Origin: Bilabrum cf. latius
Lineage: Eukaryota
Assembly: GCA_965178125.1 (NCBI GenBank)
Contig: OZ237746.1
Coordinates: 434,001 to 498,000, forward strand
DNA length: 64,000 nt
Reading direction: 5' to 3'
Within the stretch, counting starts at the first letter, position 1; each line of letters begins with the position of its first letter. This document shows positions 2,642 through 60,169 of the stretch, piece after piece. The position numbers and the translations under genes are program-made. A model generated the notes under the pieces. It had not been told where the DNA came from and made no database searches. It saw only the letters and a list, made by a program, of their open reading frames with translations.

Positions 2642-5446
2642 ATGGCAGCCAACGGAGCGAACAGGCTGTCACATGCAAGCACTGGTCCGCTCTCTGATGC
2701 AACAAATCTACTAGCTGCATCCTTGGAGATCTTCTCAAGTGATATGAAGGACATCAAGGATGTCGCTGAGATAGAAAACCCGAAATTGCTCGGAAAGGTG
2801 ATCAGTGACAGTATCGAGCATCATTCAAGCATTCCAACTATACCTTTGAGGAATGACGATCTGTGCAAGGACTACCCTGAAGTGTGCGTCAACCTGATGT
2901 GTCAATGTCGCAGCCAGAACACCGGATCTGCCCTTGTGTACTAGTACGAGTAGGTCGCACCAGCTAGTACTACGCATGCGGTCGCAAGGTGCAAACTACC
3001 AGCCCTGTACATCCCGAATACACCTTGGGGCGGCCCTATTACTCAGGCTGGGATTAAGAAAGCTCTAGTGAGGCAGAGTGCCGGCGTCCGTGATGAAACC
3101 GCGCTAAGAGCTGTGGAAGACTACAGTGACCTCGCTACCATTCTCCAGGAGCATGCCATGTTTGGGTGGAAGAAGCCTAAGAAAGTCGACAGGGACGAAC
3201 AGCTGCCGAGGGCCTTCACGGAGCTCCCGCGCTTCCTCGAATCCGGCGATCTGAGTCCACAGACACAGGCTAGCGTCATGTACGTGTCTTCCTAGCAGAA
3301 TCGGAAGTTCAAGGATGGTTTTGACAACACCAAGATCAAGGAGGTCCAGGATAAACTTGAAAAGCGCGTTGATGACCGCGCCGCAAGCATGGCTTCCGGT
3401 GGCGAGGGGGGGTCATCTCCGTCTGACAGGGGGTCTGAACCACACAGTGGGGGGGGTCCAGGTGAACATGGCAGCGGGAAGTCACCAGTCTCTGGATCTA
3501 CCAGTAGCTCTGCCCGAACAGGTACAAGCGGGGAAACTGGATCTGAAGATGGAGGTCCAGATGAATCAGTCGGTGGACAGTCACTGCCAGGCATCCTTGG
3601 TTCTAGTGGTGAACATGTCTCTAGCAGTGAACATGGCCAAGCCGGTGAGGCTCTGGAAGAGTCGAGTAGCGAACAAGCACAAGCTAGTCTCGGAGGTGGT
3701 GAAGCATCGCAAGCCCATATCATGTCACCAGAACAGGCAGTGCAGCAACTCAAGAACACCGACCGGCTGGTTTTACTGACAGCAGACATGACAGTGAAAG
3801 GTGACCTAAACGGCCGCCTACTCGATTCCTACTCGGATGTCGTGGAGATGTTCGGCGTACAGCAGGAACCAACGCAGGGATACACGGACATTTGCCACCG
3901 CCAAGACGCTCGCAAGGTCAGTATGGCTCACAAGGCCCTCAAGATTCTGGCGAAGCTATTCCTCGCTGCATACGACGCCATTTGGGGTGTCCATCCGGAT
4001 ACAGGGCCCTTCGATGGCAAGTGGTGTGGGGCCCGGAACGTGCATACTGACTAGGCCATCGTCCACTGTTTGGAGGGTGTGTGGGGAGGCTCCGCTCGAG
4101 GAGCATCGAGATCTCTCACAGGCGGTCCGTGGGAAGCAAAGGAAGGCTCGATGCGAGCTCATGGTCTCGCCTGGGGAGTCGGGCTTCAACGGTGGTTCCG
4201 GCACCATCCTGACGGTGCAAACGAAGGTGGTGGCAGCCAAAACCAGGGTGGTAGTGAAGGTGGGACGACTGACAAAGTAGGTACCGGTGAAGATGGCGAA
4301 GGCGAGGACGGAGGCACCGGTGAAGATGGCGAAGGCGAGGACGGAGGCACCGGTGAAGATGGCGAAGGCGAGGACGGAGGCACCGGTGAAGATGGCGAAG
4401 GCGAGGACGGAGGCACCGGTGAAGATGGCGAAGGCGAGGACGGAGGCACCGGTGAAGATGGCGAAGGCGAGGACGGAGGCACCGGTGGAGATGGCGAAGG
4501 CGAGGACGGAGGCACCGGTGGAGATGGCGAAGGCGAGGACGGAGGCAACCCACCGCTTGCTATCCATTCGGACCGTAAGAATGCTGCTTCGGCCAAGCAG
4601 GAGTACACGCAGTGGATGCAAGATGCGTTCGGGCCCGCAATGACTTTGGAGCAGCTGCACAATATGAAGCGTGCTGCACAGCTCCTGGTGGGGAACAAGA
4701 GGGTGAAAGAAGCTCTGAAGGACAAGACAGTCGACACTGTGGTGGGCCATGCTATGCTCATTGCGTATGTGCCAGTGCTGATGGGCCTACGCGAATATCC
4801 CCGCGAAGGCGTGAAGGTCGCGCACAATGTCTACCGCATCCTGCAGAAGGAGCACCTGTGCACGTCGCAAGCGCAATGCAAGTGCTTCAGGAGCGACCAG
4901 GGCTGCTCCCGCCCGATCAGCCCTCCGCGCTTCGACCTGGAGCCCGCAGCTCCAAATCATCGGGGAACGCTTCCACCGGAAACCCAACGGGATCAAGAAC
5001 GGGAGTCTGACCTTGGTACACCATCGAAGGAATCTAGTGACAGAAACAGTGTCGTTGCCACAGCTGCACATCAAGGCAGGTCTACGGGCGGGAGTGCAGT
5101 TAGTCCAAGCCTGCAGAGGCTCTCGGCCTTGGTGGAATCTGCGGCAGAGACTGTGCCCCAGGCGGGTTAGCCACTGCAGCATCCGGATATTGCAGACTTG
5201 GCCATCGGTGCGTACGTCTCTGCCGCCATCGCGGTCACGAAGAAAGGGTCTAGACCCCGTGCAAAGCTCGCGGGCACTGGTGAAGGATTCAAGATCCCGT
5301 GCGCACCTCACTGGAAAATGCTCGATGATGCGTTCCTGCCGCTTGAGCAACCGAGCGGTAGCAGCGCCGCATCGGCTCGAGCCTCTGACCATCGCGAAGG
5401 GCAGCCAGCGCAATTCTGCCACTTCATGGGTATCGATGTAGAGTGA
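2642..5446 (+). CDS. Unknown protein 'X', copy 1 (~930 aa, TAG=Gln); Cys/His motifs and Gly/Ser/acidic low complexity
   Basis: ORFs 2381, 3068, 3389, 4070 and 5198 share one frame, are separated only by TAG, and end at TGA 5444-5446. A conserved paralog lies at 51756-54067. The start codon is uncertain (ATG 2570 or 2642). Confidence 0.7.
4283..4546 (+). repeat. Coding minisatellite, 8 x 33 bp (TG[E/G]DGEGEDGG)
   Basis: Unit accggtgaagatggcgaaggcgaggacggaggc; absent from the paralog X2. Confidence 0.95.
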
Positions 5447-5913
5447 GTCTTGAGTAATGCGTCGGACCATGGGGAAATATCGCAAACAGCAGGCAAAGCG
5501 CATGACAGAAGGGACACTCTAGGCCGCCACCTGCGTGGTGCAAGGGCCTCGGGTGCAAGACTCAGTTGTGCAGCTACTGGTCCCGCGCCGCGTTCGATCC
5601 AGTGCGACGCACGACCTAGATTCTATCAGCAACCGCTAGCTGCTTCTGCCTGACTGCCAGGCAGTGGCTGCTGGTGGCTCGAACGTCTTCTCCATCCAGA
5701 CCAGACTCGACCGAAAATTGCTGGTTGCTTCTTACAAAGGTGGAGGGCGATTGCAAAAGCCCGACTTGGGGCGCTAGATTATTTGCTAGCTTGGCTACAG
5801 TACCTGGATCGCAGAATTTTGCATACATCTAAGTGTAGGATCCGGGGTATCTGGATCAAGGCATGCAGACTCTTGTCACACTGCGGCTGCTTCACAGCTA
5901 CTTCACTGCCGAA

Positions 5914-6320
5914 TCAATGCAACGCCTTCTACAGGCGCCCCGCGCGCGTCAGCACCTCACCCACCTGTGCCCGCCGCACCGGCTTCAGTAGCACGTCCTG
6001 CGCCCCGCACCTCCGGAACAACGCCTGGTCCTCGGGCAGCGCGTTGCCCGTCACACCCACGATCGGCACCCTGTGGATCCGGTGGTCGCTGTCCTCACGC
6101 ACGGCCCGCGCCATCTCGGGCCCGGACATGCGAGGCATGGAGAAGTCCAGCAGCACCAGGTCGGCGGCCAGACCGTGGGCCTGATCTCCCATCTGCTGGG
6201 CTCTCTGCTTGAGCACATCCAGCCCCTCCTGCCCATCACTAGCCTGCAGCACCTGAATGGATCGATCGCCATATCGCACCATGCGAGACAGGAAGAGCCT
6301 ATTGGTGCAGTTGTCGTCCT
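5914..6320 (-). pseudogene. 5'-truncated duplicate of the histidine-kinase receiver domain
   Basis: Near-identical to 9275-9680 but cut at the (VV)DD motif and joined to the 3' flank of ankyrin copy B. Confidence 0.75.
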
Positions 6321-6338
6321 ATTGCCTCTTGTCCAGTT

Positions 6339-8065
6339 TCACATACTCCCGGCCTCTGCAGCTGCTAGCTTCTCCCTCGCCGCAGCCAGCTCCCGCTCCA
6401 GGTCCCTCACACGATCCCGCAGCTCCTCCACAGCCTACCCCCCTGTCTTCCCACCAGCGCTAGCACTGCCCTACCCCTACCCATCCACACTCGCACCCCC
6501 GCACACCGCCTTGCCGCCGACCCTGTCTCCTTCCTCCCTTTCCCTGTCGCCGCCCCACCACGCCCTCCCCTCCACCAACGCCCGGGCCACATAGTCCTCA
6601 TTCCCCTACACCGGATTGCCATCCCCGCACACGCCCGCTTGCAGCCCGCTGCGCATCGCATCAAATATCCCGTCCATCATACCATCCCAGCCCTGCCGAC
6701 CGCTCAACGCACCACCAACCTTCGCAGGTGATCCAAACACAACCCTCCCATGCCCCCACTTCCACGCCCCCAGCAGCACGCTCGCGCACTCCACATGCCC
6801 CTGCTGCACCGCGCACGCAAGCGGACTCAGGCCCGCACCTGGCGACCCATTCCCACCGAGCAACCACGCCCCTCCCGCCCACCGACCCACCCGCAGCCGC
6901 TTCCCCAGCTCCAGTGGCCTGCCCTCCATCGCCGCTCGATGCACCATCCGCGCGTCCCGCTGCGCCTCGTGCGCCCGCCGGAACCGTATCAGGTCATGCC
7001 CCCTGCCGTGCCACGCACACGCCCTAGCCAGATGAGGGGGCAGCCGCTCCACCATGCGCCTCAGGCAGGCCATGGAGTCGTGCTTCACATCCTCCAGCAT
7101 CTCCTTGAGCTCATCGGAAGCGTGCTTCAACGGCGTGTACCCGAGGTCGTTCACAGCCGTGAGGTCACCTCCTGACCGGATCAACAGAGCCATGCAGGCG
7201 AATGCGTTGATCTGCCGCTGGTCCTTGCACACTTTGGTACGATACATCAACAAATGCAAGGGGGTGTCAGCTAAAGGGATGCCAGGGCAATGCGAGGGTT
7301 CTCTAGAGCTGCTATAGAGATCCTCTGAAATGATCGTATCAAGCGTCTTGTTTCGTCTCAAGTTGGCTGCCTCGCTCGATTCCAGCCAGCGACGCAGCCG
7401 GTGGTACCCGAACTCGCCTTCCCCTTCCAGCGGACTGCCCTACTCCTTGTCGCACACGGACCCTGTGCGGTCGTTGTGCAGCAAGCCGATGCGCTGGAGA
7501 CCGCGCAGGAATACAAAGTACCCCCATCGAGCAGCCCCGTGGACCACCGTCAGCCCGAGCTGCGGACAGAGCACTGAAATATCGCTAGATCAGATGAGTA
7601 ATGCTGCTGTTTTCGATAGGAGGGGTCCCAGCGAGCCTCAAGTGCGTGCATTGCTTACGTCGCTGCGTGCTGGCAGCACCCTGTCTGGAACGATCCGTCG
7701 TAAATAGCGAAGATCGGGACATGCATCTCCAGACATAAACATAGCGTATCCCAAAACCTGTGCTGATTAACACACGAGTACCGCTCTACTTCATCAATTC
7801 GGTTCGCGTAGACTAGTTGAAGCAAACCTTGGCAGAGACTCACATTCTCAACAGTCGCCGGCCTATCGTACAGTATCAACAATGGCTCGGTGTCGGGGAA
7901 ACATCTCGCGTATGGACATGGCAGCAATCTGCACGAATCGTACCGTTGCCAGAACCCGCTGCTCTTACACAGTGTGAAAAAACGTTGCATAAACCCGTAC
8001 CTTGGGCCTCCCAGGGTAGCGAGTTCATCCAAGAACGCACTCAAATCAATTGAAGGCCTGCACAT
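6339..8065 (-). CDS. Ankyrin-repeat-like protein, copy B (possibly a pseudogene)
   Basis: Paralog of 627-2362; last exon 7559-6339 is open with TAG=Gln (TAG 7440-7442 aligns to CAG in the other copies). The intron-1 acceptor CTAG|G of the other copies reads CTAT|T here (about 7702-7706). Confidence 0.55.
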
Positions 8066-15477: not shown

Positions 15478-17765
15478 ATGCCTTCCACACAGTATCCCCG
15501 TTTGTCAACGCATGATCGCAATATCTCGGGGTAAGCTTCCTTCTACTTTAAAGTTTGTATTGAACGGCGTCGACGTCAGATTAAGGTTAGAACCCGACCG
15601 GAGGAAGCGCCCGACAGTTGTGGCGTCCGCACCATCTGCTTCCGGCCCATGATTTCCTTGGCAAATGTCGCAGATCCGTCGCAGGAAATGCCACAACTGT
15701 TGTATTTCCATCCAATGGACTTCGTCTTGTCGTTGATATAGGAATCTGTTTCGACCAAGCCGTCGCTCAACCCTTAGCATTCTTCACGCATTCCCATGTG
15801 GATCACGTCGCATCGCTTGCTGCCCATGCCAGCACGCGAAACATGGTTCAGTCCCCCGCACCCCTGTATGTAATGCCACCAAGCATGGCGCCAGGCGTAT
15901 AGGCGGTCTTGGATGCGTTTGGTTCGTTGGATGGAGGGGAAATCCCCGCTCGCATTTCGGGGACGAAACCTGGGGACATGTGGAGCATTCAGCCGGCACG
16001 GGGCGGCGCAGCACGAGCAACTAGAGCGACAAACGTACTGTGTGGATCTCAAAGGACCGCATCCGCACTCGAGGCTCTCGCATTACAGCAAGAGCTGCGC
16101 GATGATCCGGCTGCGGAGGGTTGCTGGAAGCAGCCATCCGAGCACCCAAAAGCGGCAGACATTGCAGAAGGCTCGGCTGCGGAAGGAAAAGCCATGGTTC
16201 CAAGCAAAACACGCATTCTCGAAGCTGAGGTGGCATGGGCAGGAGATAGTGCCGCTGCTGCTGGCTGTGCCACAGGGGCTGAACCAGGGCAAGCAGGCCA
16301 GCAGGAGCAGGAGCAGGAGGCCCGCGGTGGGCACGGCCCAGCAACTCCTCTGCCACCTGTATTCTCTTCCGCGGGAGTCACCGTGAAGCCCTTCCGCACT
16401 CATCACAGGGTGATCTCCCAGGGGTACATGGCCTTCCAGAGGAGCAGGAGGCTGAAAGAGGCGTACAAGAGCCTTCCAGGAAAGGAGATAGGCAGGATGG
16501 CAAAGGCAGGAGAGAATATATACGAGGGTGCAGAGGTGCCCATGCTCGCGATCACGGGGGACACCACGGTGGATGCTCTCCTGGCGCACCCCACGGTGAG
16601 AGGAGCGCCCCTCCTGATCACCGAGTGCACATGTCCAGACAGAAGGAGGCTGACTCCCCAGGTGACCCGTTCTCGGGGTCACCTCCACGTGGATGACGTC
16701 ACTGGCCTGTGGGCCAGCGGGCTTCTCAGTGGCACCGCTGGCCGCAGGCTGCACCCGTCTGACTCCTTGTATCGCGTGCCTGGCAGGCAGCCGGAGCCAG
16801 AGCTGCTGCTGCAGTAGGGACAAAAAGAAGCAGGGGAAAGTGAAGGAGCAGCGGGGGGTGAAGTAGCAGTGGATGATAAGACTAGTGCGCCGGCAAGCGC
16901 TGCGGATGGATCGCTGCTTGAGTCGGGGGCTGGGGCTGGGGCAGGGGCTGGCGGAGACGGATGCATTTCCGCTGGGGATGGTTCCGGGTCGGAGAGCCTG
17001 ATCGTGCCGGCTCTAGGCGGGAGTGCTGCTTCATCACCAGCGTCTGGGGGTACGGACGGGGCACCGAACGTTCCTTGGGGTTCGCTATGGGACGACGACG
17101 GGCTGGTGAGCGCGACGCAATCGAAGCCCAGGATGGCCAAATCCAAAAAGCAGCAGAGCAAGCAGCAGGCGAAGAAATATGAAGCAGCAGGACGGGCTGG
17201 CGGCGGCGAGATCGATGAAGGCGAAACACCCGCAGAACTGTTCCCGGATGAATATGACGGCTGTAAAGTGCTATTGCTAAGCCACATCTCGGCAGCGACA
17301 TCGCCGTTCGCTGCGGTGCGGGGCATCATGCAGGGGATGGAGCGGAGCCTGCGGATGGTGGGCGCGCGAGTCACTGGGTGGATCGATCCGCGGTGCGATG
17401 CAGTGCGTGATATCGCTCGCTGTGAAGACGCAGATGTGGATGAGGCGCATCGCCGGGCGGAAGCGGAGCGAGCAGCTGCTCCTCTCCGAGCAGCTGCTCC
17501 AGCGGAAGGCGAGCATCGATCTGGTGCAGCTGCCGCTGCCGAACCAGTCAGTTCATCAGACGAATTCGCTTCGATCGTCGCGTAGATGCTGCAGGATTGG
17601 ACGGAAGAAGACAAGAAAGCGGCGAAGGAAGCTGCTAGGCGTGGAGAGCCGTGGCCGGGGACCGGTGGCGGAAGCCCGCCGGGCCTGCCCATAGTACTGG
17701 CATGTGAGACGAGTGACAGGGTCCCGCGGCCCGTGATCGCCATCGCTGCCTTCACACCGCTGTGA
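15478..17765 (+). CDS. Short-form tRNase Z (metallo-beta-lactamase fold, plant TRZ1-like) with long insertions; predicted intron 15531-15673
   Basis: Motifs SVAGNATTVVFP, VVDIG, THSHVDH, FRTHHRVISQGY, ITGDTT, ITECT, GHLH and LLSHIS. Reads through TAGs at 15900, 16815 and 17583 to TGA 17763-17765. Intron GTAAGC...CGCAG is inferred from phase, so exon 1 is tentative. Confidence 0.8.
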
Positions 17766-18300: not shown

Positions 18301-19812
18301 ATGCCAAAAATGAAGTCGGTATCCTGCCTGGTGCTTTTGGGAACGTGCGTATTCGCGAGCCATGATTTAGATTCGGGGGTTTGGCAGCACAGGCTTGCAT
18401 CTATCAGCCGAGTGAAGAGTGGCGCCAACCTTCATGCGGCATGGACATCTCCGTCCACCGGAAACGCTTTGGTCTTTTCCCCAGCTCAGTTCGGCGGAGA
18501 TCCTACTGGAAAAGCAGACAGCCTGGACGCCGTGAACAAGGCGATTGCTGCGATGACCGAGGGCTGCACCCCTGCGGGTTTGCAGTCCACTGGACCACCC
18601 CAGGTATGCGACTTGCACTCTGCCACGCTTGACCTTTCGGGTGGAACTTGGTCCATTAGTAACACGGTTCAGTTTCCTAGCGGCTACGGCAACTACAACA
18701 TCCAGGGCGGCACTTTGGCTGCGATGTCGCATTTTCCATCGGGCGCCGCCGTGCTGAACGTGGGCAACGAATCGGACGCGAAGGGCTCTAGCGCCAAGAA
18801 CATAAACATCCAGCGCCTCACGATTGACGGCAACTACGGGCTGGCGGGGACGGGACTCAACGTGTGGAACGGACAGTACGTCAACGTCGGACCTGCCATG
18901 ATGGTGTACGGCTTCTCGTAGTACGGAATCCGGATGACTGGGACGGGCGGGGGATACATTCACAACTCTTGGCTGGGGGAAGAACCCCCCTACGGCCCGC
19001 TTCCAGGGTCAGTGACCCTGGATCCAGCCCCTCGAGCCGCTGGCAGCGGAGCGAACCTCACCGCGACGTGCATCTCCTTGGAGGGTGACGAGCACGACTG
19101 CTACGTCCAGGACGTCATCATATGGAGCGGCAGGATCGGGATTCGGAGCCAGAATGGCGCAAACAAGATCCAGGGGGTGCACACTTGGAACCTGCAGACG
19201 CTCGAAGGAGGCATCGGGATCTGGCTCGAGCAAGGGACTGCATCAGTCAAGGACTCGTACCTCGATTTCTGCCCACTCGTCATCACGGACCCCAAGACGG
19301 TCGTGGCATCTGGGAACCTCTTCCTCGCGCGAGGGAATCTCGTCCTTCAGGCGAACAAGACTACCGCCGTCGAGAACTTGGTGGTGACCAACAACCGGTG
19401 GTTCTCGGAGAACAAGCCAGAGTACAAGAATGCGACCATAGTGCTCGACGGCACCTTCACGGAGGTCAGCGGGGTGACGATTGAATCCAGCAGCATCGAC
19501 AAGGTGTGGGATGCCAAGAGCACTCGAGCTACCATCACAGCGCCGTTCCCCTCCTTGCAGTTGCAGCTCAATATCGATTTCTCTGACGCGCTGTTGTTCC
19601 CTCAGGTGGGCATCAAGGAGGTCCAGTGCCAGCTCGTGATGGGCCAACCCATCGAGTACGTTGTGGCTCCTCTGCCAAAGACGCCTCAAGAGGCGGCGGA
19701 GATGGGGGTGGGGCTGCACGAGGTGACGGTGCTGCTGTCTCGTGAGCTTGACTCGGCGGGTGAGGTGACGTGCACGGTGGATCAGAGCACGAGGATCCAC
19801 GCGGCGCATTGA
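18301..19812 (+). CDS. Secreted pectin-lyase-fold (beta-helix) protein, QRT3-like polygalacturonase family (~503 aa)
   Basis: Hydrophobic N-terminus; FGGDPTGKADSLDAV, TLDLSGGTWSIS, IQGGTLAA, YIHNSWLGE, ANKIQGVHTWN, DSYLDF and IDFSDALLFP recall plant QRT3. One internal TAG at 18919-18921; ends at TGA. Confidence 0.75.
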
Positions 19813-38200: not shown

Positions 38201-41200
38201 GCCAATCCAGTGGGCGAACTGGAGCGGAGCTGGTAGTGTTTGACACCGTCTCGAAGCATGCATTAGGTGCCGAGCAGAAGGGCGTATTCGGTACAGCACA
38301 GCGCGAGGATGGTACGCTGGACGCGGAGGTGGACGAGGTTGAAGACGATAGTCGCGTGGATCAGGGACCCACGAAGCATCTGCTAGACGCTTCATGGAAT
38401 AGCTTCGCGCCGACCGGCCGTGCAAGCCCCGCTGGCGCCTGGCGTTGTGTTCTAGATGACGATTTCTACAGCGCACCGCCGTCGACCAAATCTGATGATG
38501 CTACTGGGGAGGACGAGGAACGTCCTGGCCCCGGCTATCCGCCTAGCTTTGACCAGCTCGCCAGCCCGCTGCTGGCTCCTGGCGCCCAGACCATGCTGGC
38601 TCAGACCGGTCTGTCGGCTGACGGCGCAGCTGCGAAAGGCAACCAGACTGGTGGCACTAGCGGTAGCGGTGGCCCGCCGACCCCTTTGGAATGGCCTTCC
38701 AAAGAAGACTGGCTGCACTGGGCATCTGTTCGGAAGCAGGCAGCATCGAGGTGCTGCATCGTCTGGACGTGCGGAGATTGCCGCAATCGAGAATGCGAGC
38801 CGTTGGCTGGTCTCTTGCGACGCGACGAGGCGCCCCCCTTGAGAATTGGCGAATCGGTGCTGCTGTACCCCCCGGCAAAGGCGCGAGAAAGCGCAATGAT
38901 CTGGGTGGACCAGGTCATCGCAGTGACATCGCCTACTAACGCAGTGTCAGGCTAGGAGGATTCTGCTGCACCCTCGCAGTCTTCACCGACAGAGCCGCAT
39001 TTCGGGTTTTTAGATGGCGTATTGCAGGGACCCAAAACAATGCAGATTGCAGCGCAGTAGTCTGCGGCTGCTCTTGTCCAGACGAGCGCATCAAGCGCAC
39101 CTCCAGTGCCGGTGCCGGCGGCCGAAGACGCAGACCGGTTCAAGGCGGAAGCGATGTGTTCCGCTGCGGCTCATTTTGTGTAGGGGATAGAACAAGGGGC
39201 ATTAGAAGTGCAACTGAGCGCCCAGGCGCACGAAGGCGCAGCTGCGGTAACATCTCCGGCCGTGCAGGCCGTTTGCCCGCTCACTCGGGAGCAGCGGGTG
39301 ATCGCTGTCCGATGGGCCGTGCAATGCGTGAGGGCCGTGGCATGGGTGCTGGGAACCTCCAGCCAGAGGAAGGGTCTATCGACAATCATACCGTATCCTA
39401 GTGGCGCCATAGCGGCGAACCAATCCACGATTGCAAGCGTGTCTTCTTCCTCCTCGTCAGCTTTAGCTGCCAACGGTGTGTCGGGCGCACAATCTCCTGC
39501 TGCTGCGGGCCACGTGCTGTCCATGGAAGTGTGGACTGGTACGCCCAGTCTCGCATTTCCCGCCATGCAGGCATGTGCGCCGGTCAATGCCCCGGCTCTC
39601 GGCACTCGACTGACCTTCACTCCTGCTTCCCTGCAGGGGTGGTCTCAGATCGAGCCTGCTGCGAGACGTATTGCCGGATCCTTCGTTCGAACTGTCCTGT
39701 CTCTGGACCACAAGTCGTCAACTGCGGCGGCGCTGTGGGCCACCAGTGCTCAAATGTCGGCTGGAGATGTGCCTGTTGATGTTGGCTCCATCCCCGCCGT
39801 TGTGGCTGGCCGACACGCTGAGCAGCTCTTTGCCGGTGGCGTGCCCTCGATGGAGACTGCCAGGCGGGCTGTCATATCCGCCTCTGTTCTCCGCCGGGCG
39901 GCTGCAGAGCAGATGGTGGGTGCGCTACGAAATGGGCAGCAGACGCGCAGGTAGTACATCGCCAGGCATGGGATCACCTTCGGGCAAGGTCACGTCGTTA
40001 ACCCTGACCTGGTGACAGTTGTGGACCAGGCGGCTGTGGCTGCGATACGGGGGGAATACCCCTTTCACAGTGACGTGCTGCAGCAAGCAGTCGCCTGGAA
40101 CGCAGATCTTGGGCATGCCACTGCACTCCAGATCGTAAGGACCCAGGCAGACCGATAGCTGGCCTCGGTTCCTACGGGACATCAGGCTGAACGGGCTTCT
40201 GGTCGCGACGATGCTTACTGGCGGGAACTGGCAGCCGCTGCGCGGAAAGCCAGGGCCAGCGCAGCAACTAGACCCCATGCCAACGCAAAGGCTGTGCGCA
40301 GCACCAACAAGCACGATATCGCGCAGGACGCGCTGAAGCTGCTGCCGTAGTTTGTCCCGGTGCCCCTGAGGCAGGTGGTGCAGGCACTCCCCGAGGGCGA
40401 CGAGATCGAGTCTCACGAGGCCCAGCCGTGGGATGCCGATTGCTCGCTAGCCGAAATGTGCGAGTCTGGGTGGCTAGCACAGCACCGGGATAATTCGCTG
40501 ACGGAGGGCCTGGACAAAGCCATTCCAATCACGGCATCCGGGCGGCTGGTGCAGAAAGGTCTCGGGGTGGCACAGCTGCCGAATCTTCTGCCTCCTGCAA
40601 GCCGTGCGGAGGAGACCGCGCTGGTGAACTGGTACTGCAACGTTATGGCGCAGCGGATGGGTTATGCCAAATCCATGCAACGGCCACCCCATGACGGATC
40701 CGATTCGCAGGCCGCCGTTGATGCTGCTGGACGAGACAACGACACCGGGTCACGTCAGGCCTCCCTGGTACTGCGGGGAGACCCCTGGCAGCACCCGCCG
40801 AAATACGTGCTAGAGAAAGCAATCCGCTGGCTGGGAAGAGCCAGCGATCTGGATGGATCTGACTCGAATGAGAGCGCAGTTTCGGCCAGTTTCACCGTAC
40901 GCATCGATAGCGATCGCGCTGCTGCTGTCGCGCATCACCTGGAGCGACGGATGGACAGCGCATGGCAAACACGAGGGGAGGAAGCCGACTCTGGAGCGGC
41001 ACAGTCAACCGGGTCCTCTGCGGGAATTGCGGGCTGCAGACTGCCTTCGGCTTGGGTGGGCGACATGGGGCCGCCACAGGCGCAGGCAGCCGACACGTCG
41101 GCCAGTGCGGCAGGGAGCAGGCCAAGGTCGGAGCGAGGGGGGAGGAAACGGGGCGCGGGGGCGTCAGCCAGCGCGTCTGTAAGTGGTCACAAGACTGATG

Positions 41201-43644
41201 ATACGGCTAGCTTATCCACCCTGATCCGCAGCGTGGCCCGCGCTGAATCCCAAGCGGAGGATGAGGTGGAGGTGGATCCTCGGTCGCAGTTTGAGACGTC
41301 TGCTTCGGACGCTGTTGTCAAGCTGCCAATGCTAGAAGACTTTGATTTTGGCTTGGGTGACGATTCAAGCGCTGCCACCGGCCATTCGGGTGACAACGGC
41401 GCGTGGTCCTCGGCGTCCGGCACGGGCGAGTCGCCGTCTTCAGCACCAGTGAGCCATGCAATGAGCGATGATGCCGAGGCAGAATCCCCATATGCAGGCA
41501 TCATGGGCGGTGCAGCAGCTGCGCTTGATGCAGCAGGCAGTGCAGAATTTGCAGCGGAGCCAGAGCTGCTGGCGAGCCGCGAATCGTGGGTGCGGACAGG
41601 CAACACCACGGTTGTCAACACCGGCGTCCCTACCCTGGCCCTCGTATCCCCGAGGCAAAACTTCACAGAGCGTAAGGACAGGTTCGCGTTCGTGCCTGAC
41701 GGATACCTCGCATTCGCCATATTTTGGTCGCATTTAGACGGTGGCAGGCGGGGACTGTACAGGATGACTGTGCGCACTGAGGCGGTGGGACACGCACGAG
41801 GTGCAGTGACCCCACGACGGGCAATCTTTGCCATAGACAGCGAATCCAGAGATGAATCCGACCACCCTATGATCAGCGTGCAGGCAGGCTGTCCCATAGG
41901 GGCGACCACGGAGCTTGTCCTCGCCCTGCGCCGCCTGAGCACAAAGCAGAGCGCAGTGCTGGGCGTGCCGCCACCGCCGTTGCCGTGGATGGCAGATGCA
42001 TCACTGCTTGCTATTGGCACGTATTTGGAGCCGATCTTGCTTCAAAATGCGCTGACGGATGACCCGGACAGCGGCAATGGCAAGTCGCCGCGCAGCCGCA
42101 GCCCAAGCAAGCGGCAGCGCAGCCCGAGCAAGCGTGCAGCGAGGCACGGAGGCGACGCGTCGCGGTCCTCGGAGTAGGGCTCCAATCCAGTCTTGGCTGC
42201 CGGGCTCTGGAACTTGGGGCAGGTGTCGGGCACGCTCCGGGCCACTGCGTGCCGGCTCCACCGGATGGCTGATGCTTCTGACTCCGAATGGTTCGCAGGG
42301 TTTGACCTGATGGGCCTTCTTCGCTCTGCCGCCCTTGCAGATTTCCGCAGGCACGCCAGATACATCATGGGTGCGCCGCAGGAGCAGGGACAGGAGGTGG
42401 CGGAACGGCCACCCCCCTGGAAGGTGGTCACAGCAGACGATGCGCATGCGGTAGGGCTCGACCACCTCGCCGCCGAGATCCGCATCTGTGAAGCCGGCCG
42501 TCTCGCCGCCACCATACCCTCCAGCAGAGGCACGAAGAAGAAGCGCAGACGATCGACAAAGCAGGAGGAAGTATCCAGCAGAACCAAGGCAGATCTCATT
42601 TCAAAGATTAGGGACATGAAGCGGGACTCTGCCATTCAAACGCTGTAGGACTTGGCAAGTGGAACGGGTGCATTCGCAAGGAGTGCTGCTTCAGGCCCGG
42701 CATCAGGCGCAGGAGCTTCGTTTTCATCGTCGGCCACATCCAAAAACGGACCGGCCACATCGCTGCAATTGTCCTCGTCGTCCTCAGCAGCGAGTGCATC
42801 TGCTGGCGAGCCTCCCACCCCTGGTGACGCCGGCCTGAAGCGCAAGGCCAACTCCCACACCGTCCGCGCCCTCTACCTCAAGATGCTGGCCGAGCCACTT
42901 GAGGACAGAGTCAGGGCGCTCAGATCTGCCATTCATGGGTACGGGCTCTTCGCAGCGCGCGACCTCCGGAAGGGCGAGTTTGTGTGCGAGTATACCGGCG
43001 AAGTGCTCCGCCAACCCCTTGCAGACGTGCGAGAGAGGCTGTACGAGCGTGCTTCACTGGGGGGAGACTGCTACCTGTTCCGTCTGGATGACGACTACAT
43101 CGTGGATGCAACCATGAGAGGCAGCGTGGCGCGGTTTATTAACCACAGCGGTGACCCGAACTGCGATAGCAGGATCGTGCAGCTGCCCACCCAGGTCCCG
43201 GTCTCTCTGTAGGGCGTGCTGCAAGTGCCGATCCGGGGGCCGGGAGCACAGGGACTGGCTGATGCTGGCGTGGGGGTTCTTGCGAAAGAGAGGGTTTCTC
43301 AGGATGAAGCTCTGCTGGGCAGTGCTGTCGATGTGAGCCGCGGGCGCGGGAAATCTGGGGGAGTGTCACCATCTTCGGAAGCGGCGGGAGGTGTGGTGGA
43401 GGGTGGCACAGCTGGTGCGTTGGGCAGCGCATTCGGCCCCGGGGACTCTGGCGGCGCGTTTCAGAGCAAAAAGATCGTGATCGTGGCGCTAAGGGACATC
43501 AAGAGGGGTGAGGAAGTAACGTACGATTACAAATTTCCGTTCTTTTTCACGAGGCAGGCCCAAGAGGCCGTGGCTGCGGTGGAGCAGGAAGTGGCAGAAA
43601 GGGCCATTGAGCGAAAGTTGCTGATTGATGAGGGGTGCACTTGA
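29281..43644 (+). CDS. Trithorax/MLL/SET1-like histone H3K4 methyltransferase (~4,760 aa, TAG=Gln; intron 29377-29466)
   Basis: A single frame over 29467-43644 with about 38 TAG and no TAA/TGA. PWWP-like LVWGREPNVPWHPC; PHD-like FCPL...MIQCDTCDSW...FVCSPC; bromodomain APGYLRVVRRPMDLSTI...NAMVFN; second PHD CARCGS...CAQCGQSAHLAC; FYR-like VPDGY..IFWS; SET SAIHGYGLFA / YLFRLDDDYIVDAT / RFINHS / EEVTYDYKF. Confidence 0.85.
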
Positions 43645-43804: not shown

Positions 43805-45110
43805 ATGGCGGCCGTTGCAGGAGGAGGTTCTAAATCTACTGGTGTTGCTACGAGTGATAAGGAAATTGGCGAGGTTCCGAAGGAGATTCTCGATATGACA
43901 AGGTGGGCACTCCCGAATTGTTGTGCCTCCAGGTGCATTTGTATTGTCCTGATTTGTCCAAGCCGTTCCAGGCACCGTGCGCCTCGCACTTTCGAGAATA
44001 AAACTACTTCTGTATGCACACTCGCAGCGCATCATACTACCAAGACAGCTACTCGCACTTCGGGTGAGTTGAAGAAGAGACGAAAGTGCAAGTACCGCCT
44101 CGGCGCACCAATGGACGGGCGCACGATACTTCTGGTTCCGTTTTTATCTTAAAACCTATTTCAAGTGCAGTATTCACGAGGAGATGCTTAAGGATGAAGT
44201 CCGCACCAGAAGCTACATGGATTCGATCGTTAAGAACAAGCACTTGTTCAAAGATAAGATTGTCCTCGACGTAGGCTGCGGCACCGGCATTTTGAGCATG
44301 TTTTGCGCTAAGGCAGGCGCCAAAAAAGTGATTGGAGTGGACTTCAGTGCCATCATTGAGCAGGCCCGCGAGATCGTGAAGATCAACGGGCTCTCGGACG
44401 TAGTCACCCTTGTGCGCGGCAAGGTCGAGGAGATCGAGCTGCCCGACGGTATCGAAAAGGTTGATATTATTGTTAGCGAATGGATGGGCTACTGCCTGCT
44501 CTACGAATCCATGCTCGACACGGTGCTTGTGGCGAGAGACAAGTGGCTGGCAGAGGACGGGATGCTCTTCCCCGACAAGGCCACCATGCACGTAGAGGCA
44601 ATCGAGGACGCCGAGTACATGGCGGAGAAAATCGATTTCTGGAACTCGGTGTACGGCTTTGACATGTCACCGATCAGGAAGCTGGCCATGCTGGAGCCCC
44701 TGGTGGACACTGTGGACGAGGGCCAGGTCATCTCGGACACGTGCGACATCCTCGAGCTCGACATCGCCAAGGTGAAGAAGGAGGACCTGGCCTTCAAGGT
44801 GCCTTTCGAGGTGACCTTCAAGAGAGATGACTACTGCCACGCTGTGGTGTGCCACTTTGACATCGTGTTCGGGCACTGCCACAAGCCCGTTGTGTTCTCC
44901 ACCGGTCCCCACGCCGAGTACACACACTGGAAGCAGACGGTGTTCTACCTCAAGAAGAGCCTGGTGGTCAAGGCGGGGGAGAAGCTCAGGGGAACCTTCG
45001 ATTGCAGACCCAACGACAAGAACCACCGCGATCTTGACGTGACGATGACGTACGAGTTCAAGGGCGAGCTGGGAGAGGCCAGCTTCGAGCAGGAGTACCG
45101 CCTGCGTTGA
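43805..45110 (+). CDS. PRMT1: Protein arginine N-methyltransferase 1 (~357 aa; exons 43805-43902, 44028-44063, 44171-45110)
   Basis: The spliced N-terminus [23 protein letters not shown] restores the PRMT1 motif. Also VLDVGCGTGILS, SEWMGYCLLYESML and THWKQTVFYL; ends YRLR-TGA. Two phase-consistent GT-AG introns. Confidence 0.95.
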
Positions 45111-51755: not shown

Positions 51756-54067
51756 TTAGGGCTCCTGGAAACTGATGCCCTTCAAATGGCAGAAGCCTGG
51801 CAGCTCATCGGCACCCCTTGGTTGCACAGCCTTGCTCAGCGCTTCCCAATGCGGTGGGCACGGGATATCGTTCCCATCACCTGCTTGCACGAACGTCGCA
51901 GTCGGTGTCTTCTCTGGTGGGGTGACTGCAATCGCAGCGGTGATGTAGGCGTGAATGGCCAGGTCCGCCATATCAGGTGATCCAATCAGTGCCACAGACT
52001 CTCCAAATTTATTCGCACACCCTTCCAGAGTGACCTGCCGCGCGGCGGGAGGGCTAAGAGGGAAGGTACTACCTCTTAGGCTACTCAAAGCTGCTTTACC
52101 CGATGCTGCTCCGCCTGCAGAGAGTGTTGTTTGGAAGCGAGGACGAGACACGCTGGCATGAACCTCGTTGCATTTCCCATAGCACTTGCATTGCGCTTGC
52201 GACGTGCACAGGTGCTCCTTCTGCAGGACGCGGTAGACGTTGTGCGCGACCTGCACGCCTTTGTCGGGGTACGTGCGTAGGCCCATCAGCACTGGCACGA
52301 AAGCAATGAGCATGCCTTGCCCGGCCACGTGGTCAATGTGGTGGTGATTGGACACACGCTTGGCTTCCTTGCCACCCACCAGCAGTCTCGCGGCACCAAG
52401 CATGTTTGCGAAACGATCGGAGTTCATCTCAGCACCGAGTGCGTTATACATCCACTGCATGTACTGAGCTTTCGCGGAGTTGGTTGCGTCTTGCTCTTCT
52501 GCAGGTGTCTACGCCCCTGCACCACTACTTGGACCTCCGTCCTAGCCTAGGACGGCAGATTCTTGATCCTTGCGAACCCATCGCTGTATGTCAACTCCCC
52601 AGACGAGACCGTTGGCCCTGTAGTTGTTGGTCAAGGCACTCGTATCCCAAGGGCTGCCTCCTCTTGTCTACGCACTCGGCTTCTCTGGCTTTTGTTGCTT
52701 AGGCTCTGCCTAGGACGGACCCAGCGCGTACACCCCTTTGAGACAGTCAACGATGGCCTGATCGCTATCTGCATTGGAATCTCCGCACCACCGACCGTCG
52801 AACGCCCCACCATCCATCCTGCTCTGCAAGACAGCCTAGTAGGCAGCGAGAAACAGTTTTGCCAAAATCGTGAGGGCCTTGGAGCCATGCTGATCTTGCG
52901 AGCGTCTTGGCGGTGGCAAATGTCCGTGTATCCCGGCGTTAGTTCCTGCCGCACCCCGAACATCTCCACGACATCCGAGTAGGAATCGAGTAGGCGGCCA
53001 TTTAGGTCTCCTTTTACTGTCATATCTGCTGTTAGAACGACCAGTCGGTCGGTTTTCCGGAGTGTCTGCACCGCTTCTACTGGTGACATGGAGTGGGTAT
53101 CCCCTTGCTTTGGTTTTGATGATCCACCACCTGCGACCTCAGGAGCTTCTTGGCCACTCTTGTCGTCTCCAGATCCAGTTTCTCCGCTTGTGTCTGCTCG
53201 GGCAGAGCTACTGGTAGATCCAGAGACTGGTGACTTCCCGCTGCCTGGTCCACCTGGACCCCCCCCACCTTGTGGTTCAGACCCCCTGTCAGACGGAGAT
53301 GATCCCCCCTCGCCACCGGAAACCATGCTTTTGACGCGGTCATCAACGCGCTTTCGAAGTTTCTCCTGGATCTCCTTGATCTTGGTGTTGTCAAAACCAT
53401 CCTTGAACTTCCGATTCTGCTAGGAAGACACGTACATGACGCTGGCCTGCGTCTGTGGACTCAGATCGCCGGATTCGAGGAAGCGCGGGAGCTCCGTAAA
53501 GGCCCTCGGCAGCTGCTCGTCCCTGTCGACTTTCTTAGGCTTCTCCCACCCAAACATGGCATGCTCCTGGAGAATGGCAGCGAGGTCACTGTAGTCTTCC
53601 ACAGCTCTTAGCGCGGTTTCGTCACGGACGCCGGCACTCTGCCTCACTAGAGCTTTCTGAATCCCAGCTTGAGTAATAGGGCCACCCCAAGGCGTATTCG
53701 GGATGTACAGGGCTGGTAGTTCGCACGTTGCGACCGCATGCGTAGTATCTCTAGCTGTTGCGACCTAGTACACAAGGGCAAATCGGTTGTTCTGGCTGCG
53801 ACATTGACACATCAGGTTGACGCACACTTCAGGGTAGTCCTTGCAGAGATCGTCTTTCCTCAAAGGTATAGTCGGAACGCTTGAATCATGCTTGATACTC
53901 TCCTTGATGACCTCTCCGCGCAATTCCAGGCTATTTACCTCAGCGACACCCTTGATGTCGTTCATATCACTTACAAAGATCTCCAAGGATGCAGTTAGTA
54001 CACCAGTTGCATCAGAAAGCGGGCCAGTGCTTGTATGCGACAGCCTGTACGCTCCGTTGGCTGCCAA
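51756..54067 (-). pseudogene. Unknown protein 'X', copy 2, with a 1-nt frameshift near 52881 (pseudogene or sequencing error)
   Basis: atggctc-caaggcc versus X1 atggctcacaaggcc. Homology resumes in the shifted frame and ends FCHLKGISFQEP-TAA at 51756-51758. Confidence 0.65.
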
Positions 54068-54342
54068 AAGTCGCTACACTTTGCGCTCCCTTTGGCGCAA
54101 GCGAACAGAGGCTGCAAATTCGCCTCCGGCGTTCTGCTATACGCTTAGCATGCCGTCAGAAGCTTGACACAGTCCAATAAATATAAGTTGTACCACCACA
54201 ATCAAACACATTAGCTTAGCAGTCCGGGTTTGTAGTGGAGCCAGTTCGCCACATGATGGTTCCGTCGAACGTCGCCGCCGGCGGCGCGGCGCCGCCACAT
54301 AGGCCATACTCCACTATTTGCATCTTTTGAGCAACGCCAGCA

Positions 54343-56104
54343 ATGAGCAGCCCTCCGACTGACGCCAGCGTGTTTTTGGATGAACTCGCTACCCTGAGGG
54401 GGCCAAGGAATGGATTTATGAAACGGTACATATCACTGTTTAAGAGCAGTGGGTTCTGGCAACGATACGATGCGTGCAGATTGCTGCCATGTCCATACGC
54501 GAGATGTTTTCCCGATACCGAGCCATTATCGATCCTGTACGATAGGCCGGCGACTGTTGAGAATGTGAGCTGGTGCCCAGGTGTGCTGGACTGACTATTT
54601 GTTTGCACGAATCGTATGCCATCAGTAGTGTGGTACTTGTGTTTTAATCAGCACAGGTTTTGGGATACGTCTTTTTCACGAATGGCTACGAATGTCCAAA
54701 TCTTCACTAGGTACGACAGGTCGTTCCGGACAGAGTGTTGTCGGCACGCAGCGATGTGAGAAACGCGGTTGCGGCTCGCTGGGACCCCTTGTATCGCCAA
54801 CTGCAGCATTGATCATCTCGTTTGGCTTCGTTCCACCTTCGAGTTGCTTGTCGGTGCTCGGCACGCAGCTCGGGCTGACGGTGGTCCACGGTGCTGCCTA
54901 CCAAGGGTACTTCAGATCCCTGCGCGGTCTCCAGCGCATCGGCTTGCTGCACAACGACCGCACAGGATCCGTGTGCGACAAGGAGCAGGGCAGTCCGCTG
55001 GAGGGGAAAGGCGAGTTCGGGCGGCATCGGCTGCGTCGTTGGCTGGAATCGAGCGAGGCAGCCAAGCTAAATGAAAGGTTGGAAACGAGGGTTTCAGAGT
55101 ATCTCAATCGCAGCTATAGAGAACCCTCGCATTGCCCTGGCATCCCTCTAGCTGATACCCCCTTGCATTTGGTGATGTATCGTACCAACTTGTGCAGTGG
55201 CCAGCAGTAGATCAACGCCTTCGCCTGCATGGCTCTCCTTCTCCGATCAGGAGGTGACCTCACGGCTGTGAACGACCTCGGGTACACGCCGTTGAAGCAC
55301 GCTTCCGCTGAGCTCAAGGAGATGCTGGAGGACGTGAAGCACGACTCCATGGCCTGCCTGAGGCGCATGCTGGAGCGGCTGCCCCCTCACATGGCTAGGG
55401 CGTGCGCGTGGCACGGCAGGGGGCATGACGTGATACGGTTCCGGCGGGCGCACGAGGCGCAGCGGGACGCTCGGATGGTGCATCGAGCGGCGAGGGAGGG
55501 CAGGCCACTGGAGCTGGGGAAGCGGCTGCGGGTGGGTTGGTGGGCGGGAGGGGCGTGGTTGCTTGGTGGGAATGGGTCGCCAGGTGCGGGCCTGAGTCCG
55601 CTTGCGTGCGCGGTGCAGCAGGGGCATGTGGAGTGCGCGAGCGTGCTGCTGGGGGCGTGGAAGCGGGGGCATGGGAGGGTTGTGTTTGGATCACCTGCGA
55701 AGGTTGGCGGTGCGTTGATCGGTCGGCGGGGCTGGGATGGTATGATGGACGGGATACTTGACGCGATCCGCAGCGGGGTACAAGCGGGTGTGTGCTAGGG
55801 TGGTGGCCGGGTCGAAGGTAAGGAGGACGAGGGCCGTGTGGCCCATGCGTTGGTGGAGGGGAGGGCGTGGTGGGGCGGGGACAGGGAAAGGGAGGAAGGA
55901 GACAAGGTCGGCGGCAAGGCGGTGTGCGGGGGTGTGAGTGTGACTAGCAGTGGGAATGCAAGTGAGGATGACACGGGGAATGGCCGTGGCAGCAGTGATC
56001 GCCTAGTATACTTGAATGGGCGAGCAGCGCAGCTCGAGCGGGAGCTCGCCGAGGTCCGGTCGGAAATAGCACTTGCTAAGGCTGGATTAAGTCGAGACAG
56101 CTGA
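54343..56104 (+). CDS. Ankyrin-repeat-like protein, copy C (~500 aa; exons 54343-54564, 54711-54755, 54869-56104)
   Basis: Same splice sites as copies A and D. The TGA at 54592-54594 falls inside predicted intron 1. Reads through TAGs at 55208 and 55796 and ends at TGA. Confidence 0.72.
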
Positions 56105-56850
56105 GGTACATGGTGCAGCGTCTGCAGGTGTCTGGAAGTTTTGTTTGTCAATCGAGCTTTGGTGGCTTTGAGTATGGCGCCGCGCAGCGATTGCTTCAGT
56201 TGGTTCCGTTTCGCCGAGGAAACAGAGCGCTGATGGAGGGCGAGGAACGCAGCCTCTGTCCGCACGGATCTCCAGCACCCTGTCCAAGCCTGGCCCTGCA
56301 TGCTCGCTTGCAGTGCCATGCATCGCATTGGGTCGACCAGGTGCTTCCCGTATGCTTGTTGCAGCAACACCTTCCCCGGCCAATGCCACCGACTGCCAGT
56401 GTGCCGAAAAGCCGGAAGCAGCTGCAAGCATCTCTTGAGATTGCATGCCCTAGAAATACAGCGCAGTGAAGAGGCAATCTTCGCATGTCAACCGTGTCCT
56501 ACGAACGAGTCGCATGTGCCGATCGAAGCGATCGCTCTGCTGGCTCTGATCTGGGCCGCCGAGCAAGGCTCGAGGGGCGCTCATCGGAGGACTCAGGCTC
56601 AGGCTGCGAGCGCCCTTTTGCCTCGACGACTGTCCCACCGGCCCGGCGAAGTTTGATGGGTGGCGATCAATCGAGACTGGGCATCGGCCGGTCCAGCGAG
56701 GACTCGGCAGATGTTCAAGAGGGGGGGGGGGCGGTCTCACCGGATACGAGGCTCGTCCGGAGTCGCGCGCGGGCGTTTGGCCACTGGCACGCTGCAAGGC
56801 TGGGCATCCTGCCCCTCCACTATTTGCATCACTTCAGAGCAACGCTAGCA

Positions 56851-58606
56851 ATGAGCAGCTCTCCGACGGACGCCAGCGTGTTTTTGGATGAACTCGCTAC
56901 CCTGAGGGGCCCAAGGAATGGATTTATGCAACGGTACATATCACTGTTTAAGAGCAGTGGGTTCTGGCAACGATACGATTCGTGCAGATTGCTGCCATGT
57001 CCATACACGAGATGTTTCCCCGATACCGAGCCATTATCGATACTGTACGATAGGCCGGCGACTGTTGAGAATGTGAGCTGGTGCCCAGGTTTGCTTCAAC
57101 TAGTCTACGCGAACCGAATTGATGAAGTAGTGTGGTACTTGTGTTTTAATCAGCACAGGTTTTGGGATACGTCTTTTTCACGTATGGCTACGAATGTCCA
57201 AATCTTCACTAGGTACGCCAGGTCGTTCCGGACAGAGTGTTGTCGGCACGCAGCGATGTGAGAAACGCGGTTGCGGCTCGCTGGGACCCCTTGTATTGCC
57301 GACTGCAGCATTGATCATCTCGTTTGGCCAAGTTCCACCTTCGACTTTCTTTTTGGTGTTCGGCACGCAGCTCGGGCTGACGGTGGTCCATGGTGCTGCC
57401 CTTCGAGGGTACTTCAGATTCCTGCGCCTTCTGCAGCGCATCGGCTTGCTGCACAACAACCGCACAGGGTCCGTGTGCGACAAGGAGCAGGGCAGTCCGC
57501 TGGAGGGGAAAGGCGAGTTCGGGCGGCATCGGCTGCGTCGTTGGCTGGAATCGAGCGAGGCAGCCAAGCTGAATGAAAGGTTGGAAACGAGGGTTTCAGA
57601 GTTCCTCGATTGCAGCTATAAAGAACCCTCGCATTTTCCTGGCATCCCTCTAGCTGACACCCCCTTGCATCTGGTGATGTATCGTACCAAAGTGTGCAGT
57701 GGCTAGCGGCAGATCAACGCCTTCGCCTGCATGGCTCTGTTGATCCGATCAGGAGGAGACCTCACGACTGTGAACGACCTCGGGTACACGCCGTTGCAGC
57801 ACGCTTCTGCTGAGCTCAAGGAGATGCTGGAGGACGTGAAGCACGACTCCATGGCCTGCCTGAGGCGCATGCTGGAGCGGCTGCCCCCTCACATGGCTAG
57901 GGCGTGCGCGTGGCACGGCAGGGTGCATGACCTGATACGGTTCCGGCGGGCGCACGAGGCGCAGCGGGACGCACGGATGGTGCATCGAGCGGCGAGGGAG
58001 GGCAGGCCACTGGAGCTGGGGAAGCGGCTGCGGGTGGGTCGATGGGCGGGAGGGGCGTGGTTGCTTGGTGGGAATGGGTCGCCAGGTGCGGGCTTGAGTC
58101 CGCTTGCGTGCGCGGTGCAGCAGGGGCATGTGGAGTGCGCGAGCGTGCTGCTGGGGGCGTGGAAGCGGGGGCATGGGAGGGTTGTGTTTGGATCACCTGC
58201 GAAGGTTGGTGGTGCGTTGAGCGGTCGGCGGGGCTGGGATGGTATGATGGACGGGATACTTGATGCGATCCGCAGCGGGGTACAAGCGGGCGTGTGCTAG
58301 GGTGGTGGCCGGGTCGAAGGTAAGGAGGACGAGGGCCGTGTGGCCCATGCGTTGGTGGAGGGGAGGGCGTGGTGGGGCGGGGACAGGGGAAGGGAGGAAG
58401 GAGACAAGGATTGTGGGAAGGCGGTGTGCGGGGGTGTGAGTGTGACTAGCAGTGGGAATGCAAGTGGGGATGACACGGGGAATGGCCATGGCAGCAGTCA
58501 GCGCCTAGCATACTTGAATGGGCGAGCAGCGCAGCTGGAGCGGGAGCTCGCCGAGGTCCGGTCGGAATTAGCACTTGCTAAGGCTGGATTAAGTCGAGAC
58601 AGCTGA
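56851..58606 (+). CDS. Ankyrin-repeat-like protein, copy D (~500 aa; exons 56851-57072, 57213-57257, 57371-58606)
   Basis: Tandem duplicate of copy C. Reads through TAGs at 57704 and 58298 and ends at TGA. Confidence 0.72.

Positions 58607-60126: not shown

Positions 60127-60169
<43 letters not shown>

Follow-up and report, generated by a model that had tools for sequence, protein, structure and literature searches.

Exchange of TAG and CAG codons suggests that UAG is read as glutamine in a compact, GC-rich eukaryotic nuclear genome

The stretch of DNA analysed here, referred to below as the window, comprises 64,000 nucleotides (nt) of contig OZ237746.1 (positions 434,001 to 498,000; assembly GCA_965178125.1, Bilabrum cf. 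latius) and has a GC content of 0.59. TAG occurs freely within its long reading frames and is exchanged for CAG between its duplicated genes, and the nuclear code of this organism very probably reads UAG as glutamine (Gln), with UGA the terminator that is seen and UAA not used as a sense codon. The longest stop-to-stop frame increases from 689 codons under the standard code to 4,744 when only TAG is read through, which yields frames of 4,744, 2,334, 1,941, 1,927 and 1,400 codons; reading through TAA leaves the longest stop-to-stop frame unchanged, and reading through TGA gives a maximum of 772 codons. The eight long frames (14,661 codons) contain 123 TAG, no TAA and no TGA, as compared with 137 and 132 TAG, 47 and 48 TAA, and 217 and 359 TGA in frames 2 and 3 of the same DNA. 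That is, in-frame TAG is neither enriched nor avoided, while in-frame TAA and TGA are strictly excluded. The trinucleotide counts across the window are 535 TAG, 185 TAA and 862 TGA. It is practically certain that TAG is a sense codon in the window; it makes up 137/825 of the putative Gln codons, a figure that includes one mis-framed PRMT1 row to be disregarded, and CAA and CAG stand at 203:485 in the counted frames.

Long reading frames, paralogs and a metagenomic relative

The long frames are recognisable eukaryotic genes, with SET and bromodomain, HisKA, HATPase and receiver, UCH and PRMT domains among their Pfam matches. The spacers between genes are very short and the GT-AG introns are short. 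The window is compact eukaryotic nuclear genome DNA, because the PRMT1 gene has spliced GT..AG introns and is separated from the SET gene by an apparent spacer of about 80 nt (the PRMT1 transcript starts at about 43828, at an adapter-flanked contig end, and the SET-gene contig ends at 43745). In-frame UAG within conserved genes, the mark of a nuclear code in which UAG alone has become Gln, was found in the SET, bromodomain, histidine kinase and UCH frames. It is found in single-copy genes: the bromodomain and SET gene (29413..43644, plus strand) has 38 TAG, 0 TAA and 0 TGA in its 4,743 codons and ends at TGA, and a low-complexity gene of 2,333 codons matching no Pfam family (20666..27667, minus strand) has 18 TAG, 0 TAA and 0 TGA.

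The duplicated genes are two hybrid histidine kinases (C1, 9275..15055, minus strand; C2, 45419..51241, plus strand), the pair B1 (2303..5446, plus strand) and B2 (51756..54415, minus strand), and four ankyrin-repeat copies (A1, 627..2063, and A2, 6339..7589, both minus strand; A3, 54569..56104, and A4, 57077..58606, both plus strand). An earlier reading of this DNA from its letters alone, here called the sequence-only reading, had claimed that TAG and CAG trade places between these paralogs at eight positions like synonymous codons. The paralogs were compared in protein-guided codon alignments with TAG masked as X, such that the aligner was unable to favour Gln, and an additional alignment was run at the nucleotide level. 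Every coordinate carries the codon attributed to it, and all eight pairs are reproduced in the masked alignments. On the plus strand, the coding-sense TAGs at 48038 and 48080 in C2 face CAG at 12404 and 12362 in C1, those at 55208 in A3 and 57704 in A4 face CAG at 1500/1506 in A1, and that at 4052 in B1 faces CAG at 52758 in B2; on the minus strand, TAG at 9290 and 10979 in C1 faces CAG at 51215 and 49490 in C2, and TAG at 7440 in A2 faces CAG at 1728/54986 in A1 and A3. At each of the three ankyrin sites CAG stands in the other three copies, and these polarised swaps all run from CAG to TAG, in A2, A3 and A4. Two of the eight swaps are poorly aligned, namely 9290/51215 (flank identity 0.40) and 10979/49490 (0.31, with a shared APDT directly after the codon). 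A ninth swap, beyond those listed earlier, places CAG at 2582 in B1 against TAG at 54137 in B2. As had been claimed, TAG is carried by either paralog, and eight places have TAG in both copies (9698/50807, 13727/46736, 3293/53420, 894/6606, 765/6477, 759/6471, 723/6435 and 55796/58298).

The sequence-only reading had further proposed comparing the exchange of TAG and CAG with synonymous change, and with CAA>TAA and CGA>TGA changes, which it had not seen in the paralogs. Only columns with a flank identity of at least 50% were counted, summed over C1-C2, B1-B2, A1-A2 and A3-A4. CAG/TAG sites differ in 7/56 cases (12.5%), as compared with 31/347 four-fold degenerate C/T sites (8.9%; Fisher p = 0.46) and 7/102 synonymous CTG/TTG sites, whereas non-synonymous first-position C/T sites (CGG/TGG, CGC/TGC and CAC/TAC) differ at 2/172 (p = 0.0009 against CAG/TAG). 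TAG/CAG exchange is indistinguishable from synonymous exchange, and outpaces comparable replacement change by a factor of about ten. The absence of CAA>TAA and CGA>TGA changes is borne out at 0/9 and 0/7 reliably aligned codons, respectively, but these 16 sites have little power alone, because CGA and CAA are rare codons here. When TGG/TGA (0/29) is added to them, about 3.7 differences would be expected at the neutral transition rate and none is seen (P of zero = 0.025). The question is decided by the window-wide in-frame counts rather than by this paralog control, and the scope of the original claim changes with it: the swaps between paralogs are real, but the phenomenon belongs to the genetic code of the whole window and not just to the duplicated genes.

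Within the Gln codon family, TAG is also conserved to the same degree as CAG, in that the aligned partner is a Gln codon (CAG, CAA or TAG) for 13/15 occurrences of TAG, 103/125 of CAG and 22/32 of CAA. Rates, conservation and the in-frame counts of single-copy genes all support TAG and CAG acting as synonymous codons and not as products of decay. If UAG is read as Gln, CAG and TAG would interchange silently through a C/T transition at their first base, and such changes would build up in either copy, and at the synonymous rate, between the inverted segmental duplicates.

The same pattern is observed in a metagenome contig of 10,134 nt (L001), the PRMT1 of which is 94% identical to that of the window in protein and 83% in DNA; a second metagenome contig (L002) is shorter and of the same kind. 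The RING/PHD frame of L001, of 1,699 codons, contains 12 TAG, 0 TAA and 0 TGA and ends at TGA, while the other frames contain 3 and 7 TAA and 35 and 33 TGA. This implies that a UAG=Gln code is common to at least two related organisms. The RING/PHD frame has no counterpart in the window, and the comparison of orthologs was limited to PRMT1 and the first exon of the ubiquitin-specific protease (USP) gene.

The residue encoded by TAG and the ends of genes

Given that TAG is a sense codon, Gln is its highly probable meaning. The partners in 12 independent paralog events comprise nine Gln, one Leu, one Asp and one Gly, and BLOSUM62 conditional probabilities for these events make Gln about 10^4 times likelier than the runner-up, Glu. 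In the first part of the USP gene (58960..59766, plus strand; UCH profile positions 2-140, E = 2.2e-06), the Cys box reads G-A-T-C-F-L-N-V-C-TAG-TAG-V-L, with the two TAGs at 59149-59151 and 59152-59154. The second of these aligns with the Gln of 'NSVLQAL' in USP46/USP12 when a two-sequence profile of the window exon and its L001 ortholog is used; it is TAG in L001 as well, where the first is CAG. Similarly, the TAG at codon 106 of the 15585-17765 frame corresponds to Gln in the closest homologue, P0147 (63% identical), which together with P0148 makes up the two protein-library fragments that represent this gene in the relative.

A number of observations weigh against this reading, and they are given here with the alternatives on which they bear. 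One alternative is an ambiguous code, as in Condylostoma or the karyorelict ciliates, in which TAG is mostly Gln but a context-dependent stop in some genes. The verified gene ends are all TGA: those of PRMT1 (in the window, L001 and L002), of a secreted beta-helix protein, the C-terminus of which matches its homologues exactly and so fixes TGA 19810-19812 as the stop, and of both histidine kinases, which stop at TGA a few residues past the receiver domain. No gene end at TAG was found, but only about six ends could be verified, so that a minority of TAG terminators could escape and a dual role for TAG as stop and sense codon is allowed. PRMT1, the gene with the deepest coverage in RNA-like runs, has no TAG in its 345-codon frame (44073-45110), whereas about 0.8% of the codons of the long low-complexity genes are TAG; TAG may be avoided in highly expressed genes, and the lack of TAG in PRMT1 could mean that this codon is decoded less efficiently. 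The in-frame frequency of TAG across the eight long frames, on a par with that of the other frames, argues against any general avoidance, and an ambiguous code is considered unlikely.

It seems quite improbable that TAG is a sense codon for another residue, be it Glu, Lys, Leu, Tyr, Trp, Ser or pyrrolysine, although codes with UAG as Leu, Ser or Glu do exist in other eukaryotes (PMC11687900). Three reliably aligned TAGs face Leu, Asp or Gly codons: the non-Gln partner that the sequence-only reading had taken to be the single exception, GAC 3974 opposite TAG 52836, is confirmed, but two further ones exist (TTA 46577 opposite TAG 13883, and GGG 912/6624 opposite TAG 55796/58298). The TAG at 52836 lies just past the frame shift of B2. 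TAG and CAG are a single transition apart, and mutational closeness therefore adds to the excess of Gln partners. One TAG of L001 faces GAA (Glu) in the window. The profile matches to USP46/USP12 are weak (E 0.08-0.4, with USP46 at 0.08), although the motif is clear, and a phmmer search of the first USP exon against solved structures returned nothing at E ≤ 0.01. Most TAGs lie in low-complexity, poorly conserved stretches, such that informative deep-homology sites are few and the evidence for Gln from distant homologues is thin. Only two columns in conserved domains are readable, and both vary across distant homologues: at codon 106, E and R outnumber Q over 150 homologues (E 29, R 29, Q 12, others), and in the beta-helix column G matches Q in number and E nearly does (Q 5, G 5, E 4, K 2, A, D, S; n = 19). 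Against another residue stand the synonymous rate of TAG/CAG exchange, the predominance of Gln-codon partners and the likelihood ratio over Glu, the absence of TAG/TTG, TAG/CTG, TAG/GAG and TAG/AAG pairs from the reliably aligned paralog columns, the Gln position of the Cys box that is TAG in two species, and the Gln of the closest homologue at codon 106.

A code in which both UAA and UAG (UAR) encode Gln, as in NCBI table 6, with TAA merely made rare by the high GC content, is very unlikely. UAA and UAG usually change together (PMC11687900), and TAA is rare across the window, at 185 trinucleotides against 535 TAG. However, a Gln meaning for TAA, at the CAA:CAG ratio, would predict about 51 in-frame TAA beside the 123 TAG, and none is seen where the other frames have 47 and 48; L001 likewise has none in 1,699 codons, as compared with 3 and 7. 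Reading through TAA also fails to extend real genes, with the 4,743-codon frame growing to 4,749 and those of 2,333, 1,926 and 1,940 codons remaining unchanged. UAA is not a sense codon here. A further point to set against the proposed code is that none of the roughly six verified ends is at TAA either; this is not significant, because the TGA trinucleotide is 4.7 times commoner than TAA (862:185). TAA could either be a stop in rare use or have no assignment.

Editing of genomic TAG to CAG in mRNA under a standard code is highly improbable; plant organelles are known to remove stop codons by U-to-C editing (PMC12548569), but no result of this analysis favours it here. Contigs of three sequencing runs (X5, X7 and X8) splice both PRMT1 introns, which a DNA run (X1) retains, and the pieces of these contigs that fall on the SET and kinase genes cover 18, 3 and 2 in-frame TAGs, respectively, with zero differing letters. 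The word depth of X5 is RNA-like, at 269-fold on PRMT1 against about 6 on the SET gene. It should nevertheless be noted that none of the runs listed as containing this DNA is catalogued as RNA, that X5 was classed as 'probably DNA' and that the RNA status of X7 and X8 is a guess; as these contigs could represent RNA or contaminating DNA, the evidence against editing is moderate. The joints 48182/48525 and 48222/48518 were tried as introns and rejected, being present in the DNA run too, and are taken as cross-mapped contigs of paralog C1. The 3' untranslated regions look to be about 35-100 nt long. The same DNA, at 36000-45999, is also present in runs under four coded organism labels from four studies (12-100% of sampled words), and the organism may be one that lives together with others, inside them or on them, or one that is common across mixed samples.

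Decay of the duplicated genes, with TAGs arising as C-to-T nonsense mutations, would fit the direction of the three ankyrin swaps and the frame shift in B2, but can effectively be dismissed, as TAG is equally common in single-copy conserved genes, no copy has an in-frame TGA or TAA where about 3.7 such transitions were expected, both copies retain TAG at eight places, the C of CAG lies outside any CpG, and the ratio of non-synonymous to synonymous divergence between paralogs (dN/dS) is 0.24-0.58, a range calculated from better-aligned columns, a filter that biases dN downwards, and so taken to show just that the copies are not freely decaying.

Decoding and comparison with known codes

A code in which UAG alone is read as Gln would be decoded by a UAG-specific tRNA-Gln with a CUA anticodon, one base from the normal CUG, and would entail a release factor eRF1 that has lost recognition of UAG while keeping that of UGA and, probably, of UAA. 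In known UAG-only codes, a tRNA with the CUA anticodon reads UAG and not UAA (PMC11687900); one anticodon change in a copy of tRNA-Gln(CUG), together with loss of UAG recognition by eRF1, would therefore suffice. The decoding machinery itself went unseen, which likewise tells against the proposed code: ARAGORN searches of the window, L001 and L002 returned no tRNA genes, an Rfam search gave nothing at gathering scores, and the domain scans found no eRF1 domain in the window frames scanned.

The position of the organism is only loosely constrained by PRMT1. The best named homologues, which belong to a bicosoecid, Palpitomonas, Hemimastix, early fungi and an oomycete, are 61-65% identical, and named homologues overall (bicosoecid, Palpitomonas, Hemimastix, choanoflagellates and Bigelowiella) are 44-65% identical and give no placement. 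In a PRMT1 tree of 20 rows, which includes one stramenopile, no ciliate and no metamonad, the window and L001 form their own long branch outside a supported fungal clade and are otherwise unplaced.

Variant nuclear codes are rare outside the ciliates, and a change of UAG without UAA is rarer still. Codes with UAG decoupled in this way were first described in 2017, with UAG as Leu in the rhizarian exLh and as Gln in Iotanema spirale (Fornicata), in which UAA is the primary terminator (PMC5304391). UAG=Gln-only codes were later found in the ciliates Hartmannula sinica, Trochilia petrani and Protocruzia tuzeti, alongside UAG as Leu in uncultivated phyllopharyngeans, UAG as Ser in Scotinosphaera, and UAA as Lys with UAG as Glu in Oligohymenophorea sp. 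PL0344 (PMC11687900). Iotanema, Hartmannula, Trochilia and Protocruzia (NCBI table 15 type) resemble the window in that UAG alone has become Gln and UAA is not sense. By contrast, the Phyllopharyngea have a GC content of 27-54%, as against 0.59 in the window, and 86.9-98.3% of phyllopharyngean genes end in UAA (PMC11687900). Termination in the known UAG=Gln-only codes is mainly at UAA, whereas every verified end in the window is TGA. As far as one gene tree can tell, the lineage of the window also stands apart from these cases.

UAR is read as Gln (table 6) in many ciliates, hexamitin diplomonads, ulvophycean green algae, the oxymonad Streblomastix and the aphelid Amoeboaphelidium protococcarum. 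These codes share with the window the change of a stop to Gln and the interchangeability of TAG with CAG, but TAA is not sense in the window. A. protococcarum is the one fungus-related organism reported with TAG and TAA as Gln in the parts consulted of PMC5304391 and PMC6299283; its genome has 40% GC (PMC10608142), as compared with 59% in the window. The frequency of early fungi among the named PRMT1 matches had made it a candidate source of this DNA, which was rejected on that difference in GC content. The codes with UAG as Leu, Ser or Glu are alike in uncoupling UAG from UAA in a nuclear code, but TAG in the window exchanges with CAG and not with TTG/CTG, TCG or GAG. TAG is read as Gln in crAss-like and other gut phages (code 15; PMC9523058). 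Such phages carry a suppressor tRNA with which they switch code in their late genes. Unlike these, the window is nuclear DNA of a eukaryote, in which GT-AG introns are spliced and the domain architectures are of eukaryotic type.

The codon change itself is already known; it is the base composition, the terminator seen and the lineage that differ. No description of a GC-rich non-ciliate eukaryote with UAG=Gln only was found in the literature searched, the coverage of which was partial and without supplements, such that it may have been published elsewhere. It is tentatively suggested that UAG=Gln alone arose independently in a GC-rich lineage with a compact genome, with UGA a working terminator and UAA perhaps unassigned; equally tentatively, such an origin would be a trait of the lineage and not of a single strain, as the metagenome relative has the same code. 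If true, this would invert the situation in the known UAG=Gln-only codes, found in AT-richer genomes that end genes mainly at UAA. A GC-rich, UGA-terminating genome of this type would add an independent data point on the uncoupling of UAG from UAA, and on a possible role of base composition in determining the stop codon that is captured. Under the standard code, annotation of this genome and its metagenomic relatives would fragment most long genes, cutting the 4,743-codon SET protein at 38 places.

Gene content and arrangement of the window

A large inverted segmental duplication occupies both ends of the window (627-15055 and 45419-58606), its arms being 83-98% alike in DNA. The order in the left arm is A1, B1, a histidine kinase 3' fragment, A2 and C1, and in the right arm, reversed, A4, A3, B2 and C2. 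The kinase fragment is a stray copy of the 3' end, including the receiver region, at 5590-6320 between B1 and A2, and shares 98% identity with 9056-9355 and 92% with 50827-51222. C1, with HisKA, HATPase_c and receiver domains, has 16 in-frame TAGs, and C2 has 17. B1 comprises 1047 codons and matches no Pfam family; within it, at 4213-4608, at least nine tandem copies of a 33-nt unit encode a GEDGEGEDGGT repeat. B2 is divided between two frames that overlap (52631-54415 and 51756-53138). Across the frame shift it lacks about 97 nt relative to B1, and it may be a pseudogene or have another exon structure.

PRMT1 (43828..45110, plus strand) has introns at 43901-44025 and 44063-44169 and a last exon at 44170-45110. 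In L001, a RING/PHD protein with a weak OTU match (1976-7075) lies upstream of PRMT1, in the place taken by the SET gene in the window, and the USP gene directly follows PRMT1, such that gene order is conserved only downstream. The adjacency of PRMT1 and USP in L001 implies that the right arm of the duplication (about 45.4-58.9 kb) was either inserted here or lost in the L001 lineage. The remainder of the USP gene (59800..63999, plus strand; UCH profile positions 130-241) has a long low-complexity tail and 23 in-frame TAGs, and leaves the window; 12/18-nt repeats within it, at 60961-61248, encode an Ala-Pro/Ala-Gln tract.

Between the left arm and the single-copy genes described above lie two further genes, both on the plus strand. 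An open frame of 726 codons (15585..17765) with 4 in-frame TAGs is related to proteins of about 280 residues; it has no Pfam match, and a metallo-beta-lactamase-like HxHxDH motif was noted by eye. The secreted right-handed beta-helix protein (18301..19812) has one in-frame TAG, and its 19 homologues come from choanoflagellates, Bigelowiella and metagenome proteins. Finally, an array of 45/54-nt repeats, of which 16 copies were found, sits at 27615-28669 between the divergently oriented 20666-27667 and SET genes, with several frames open on both strands.

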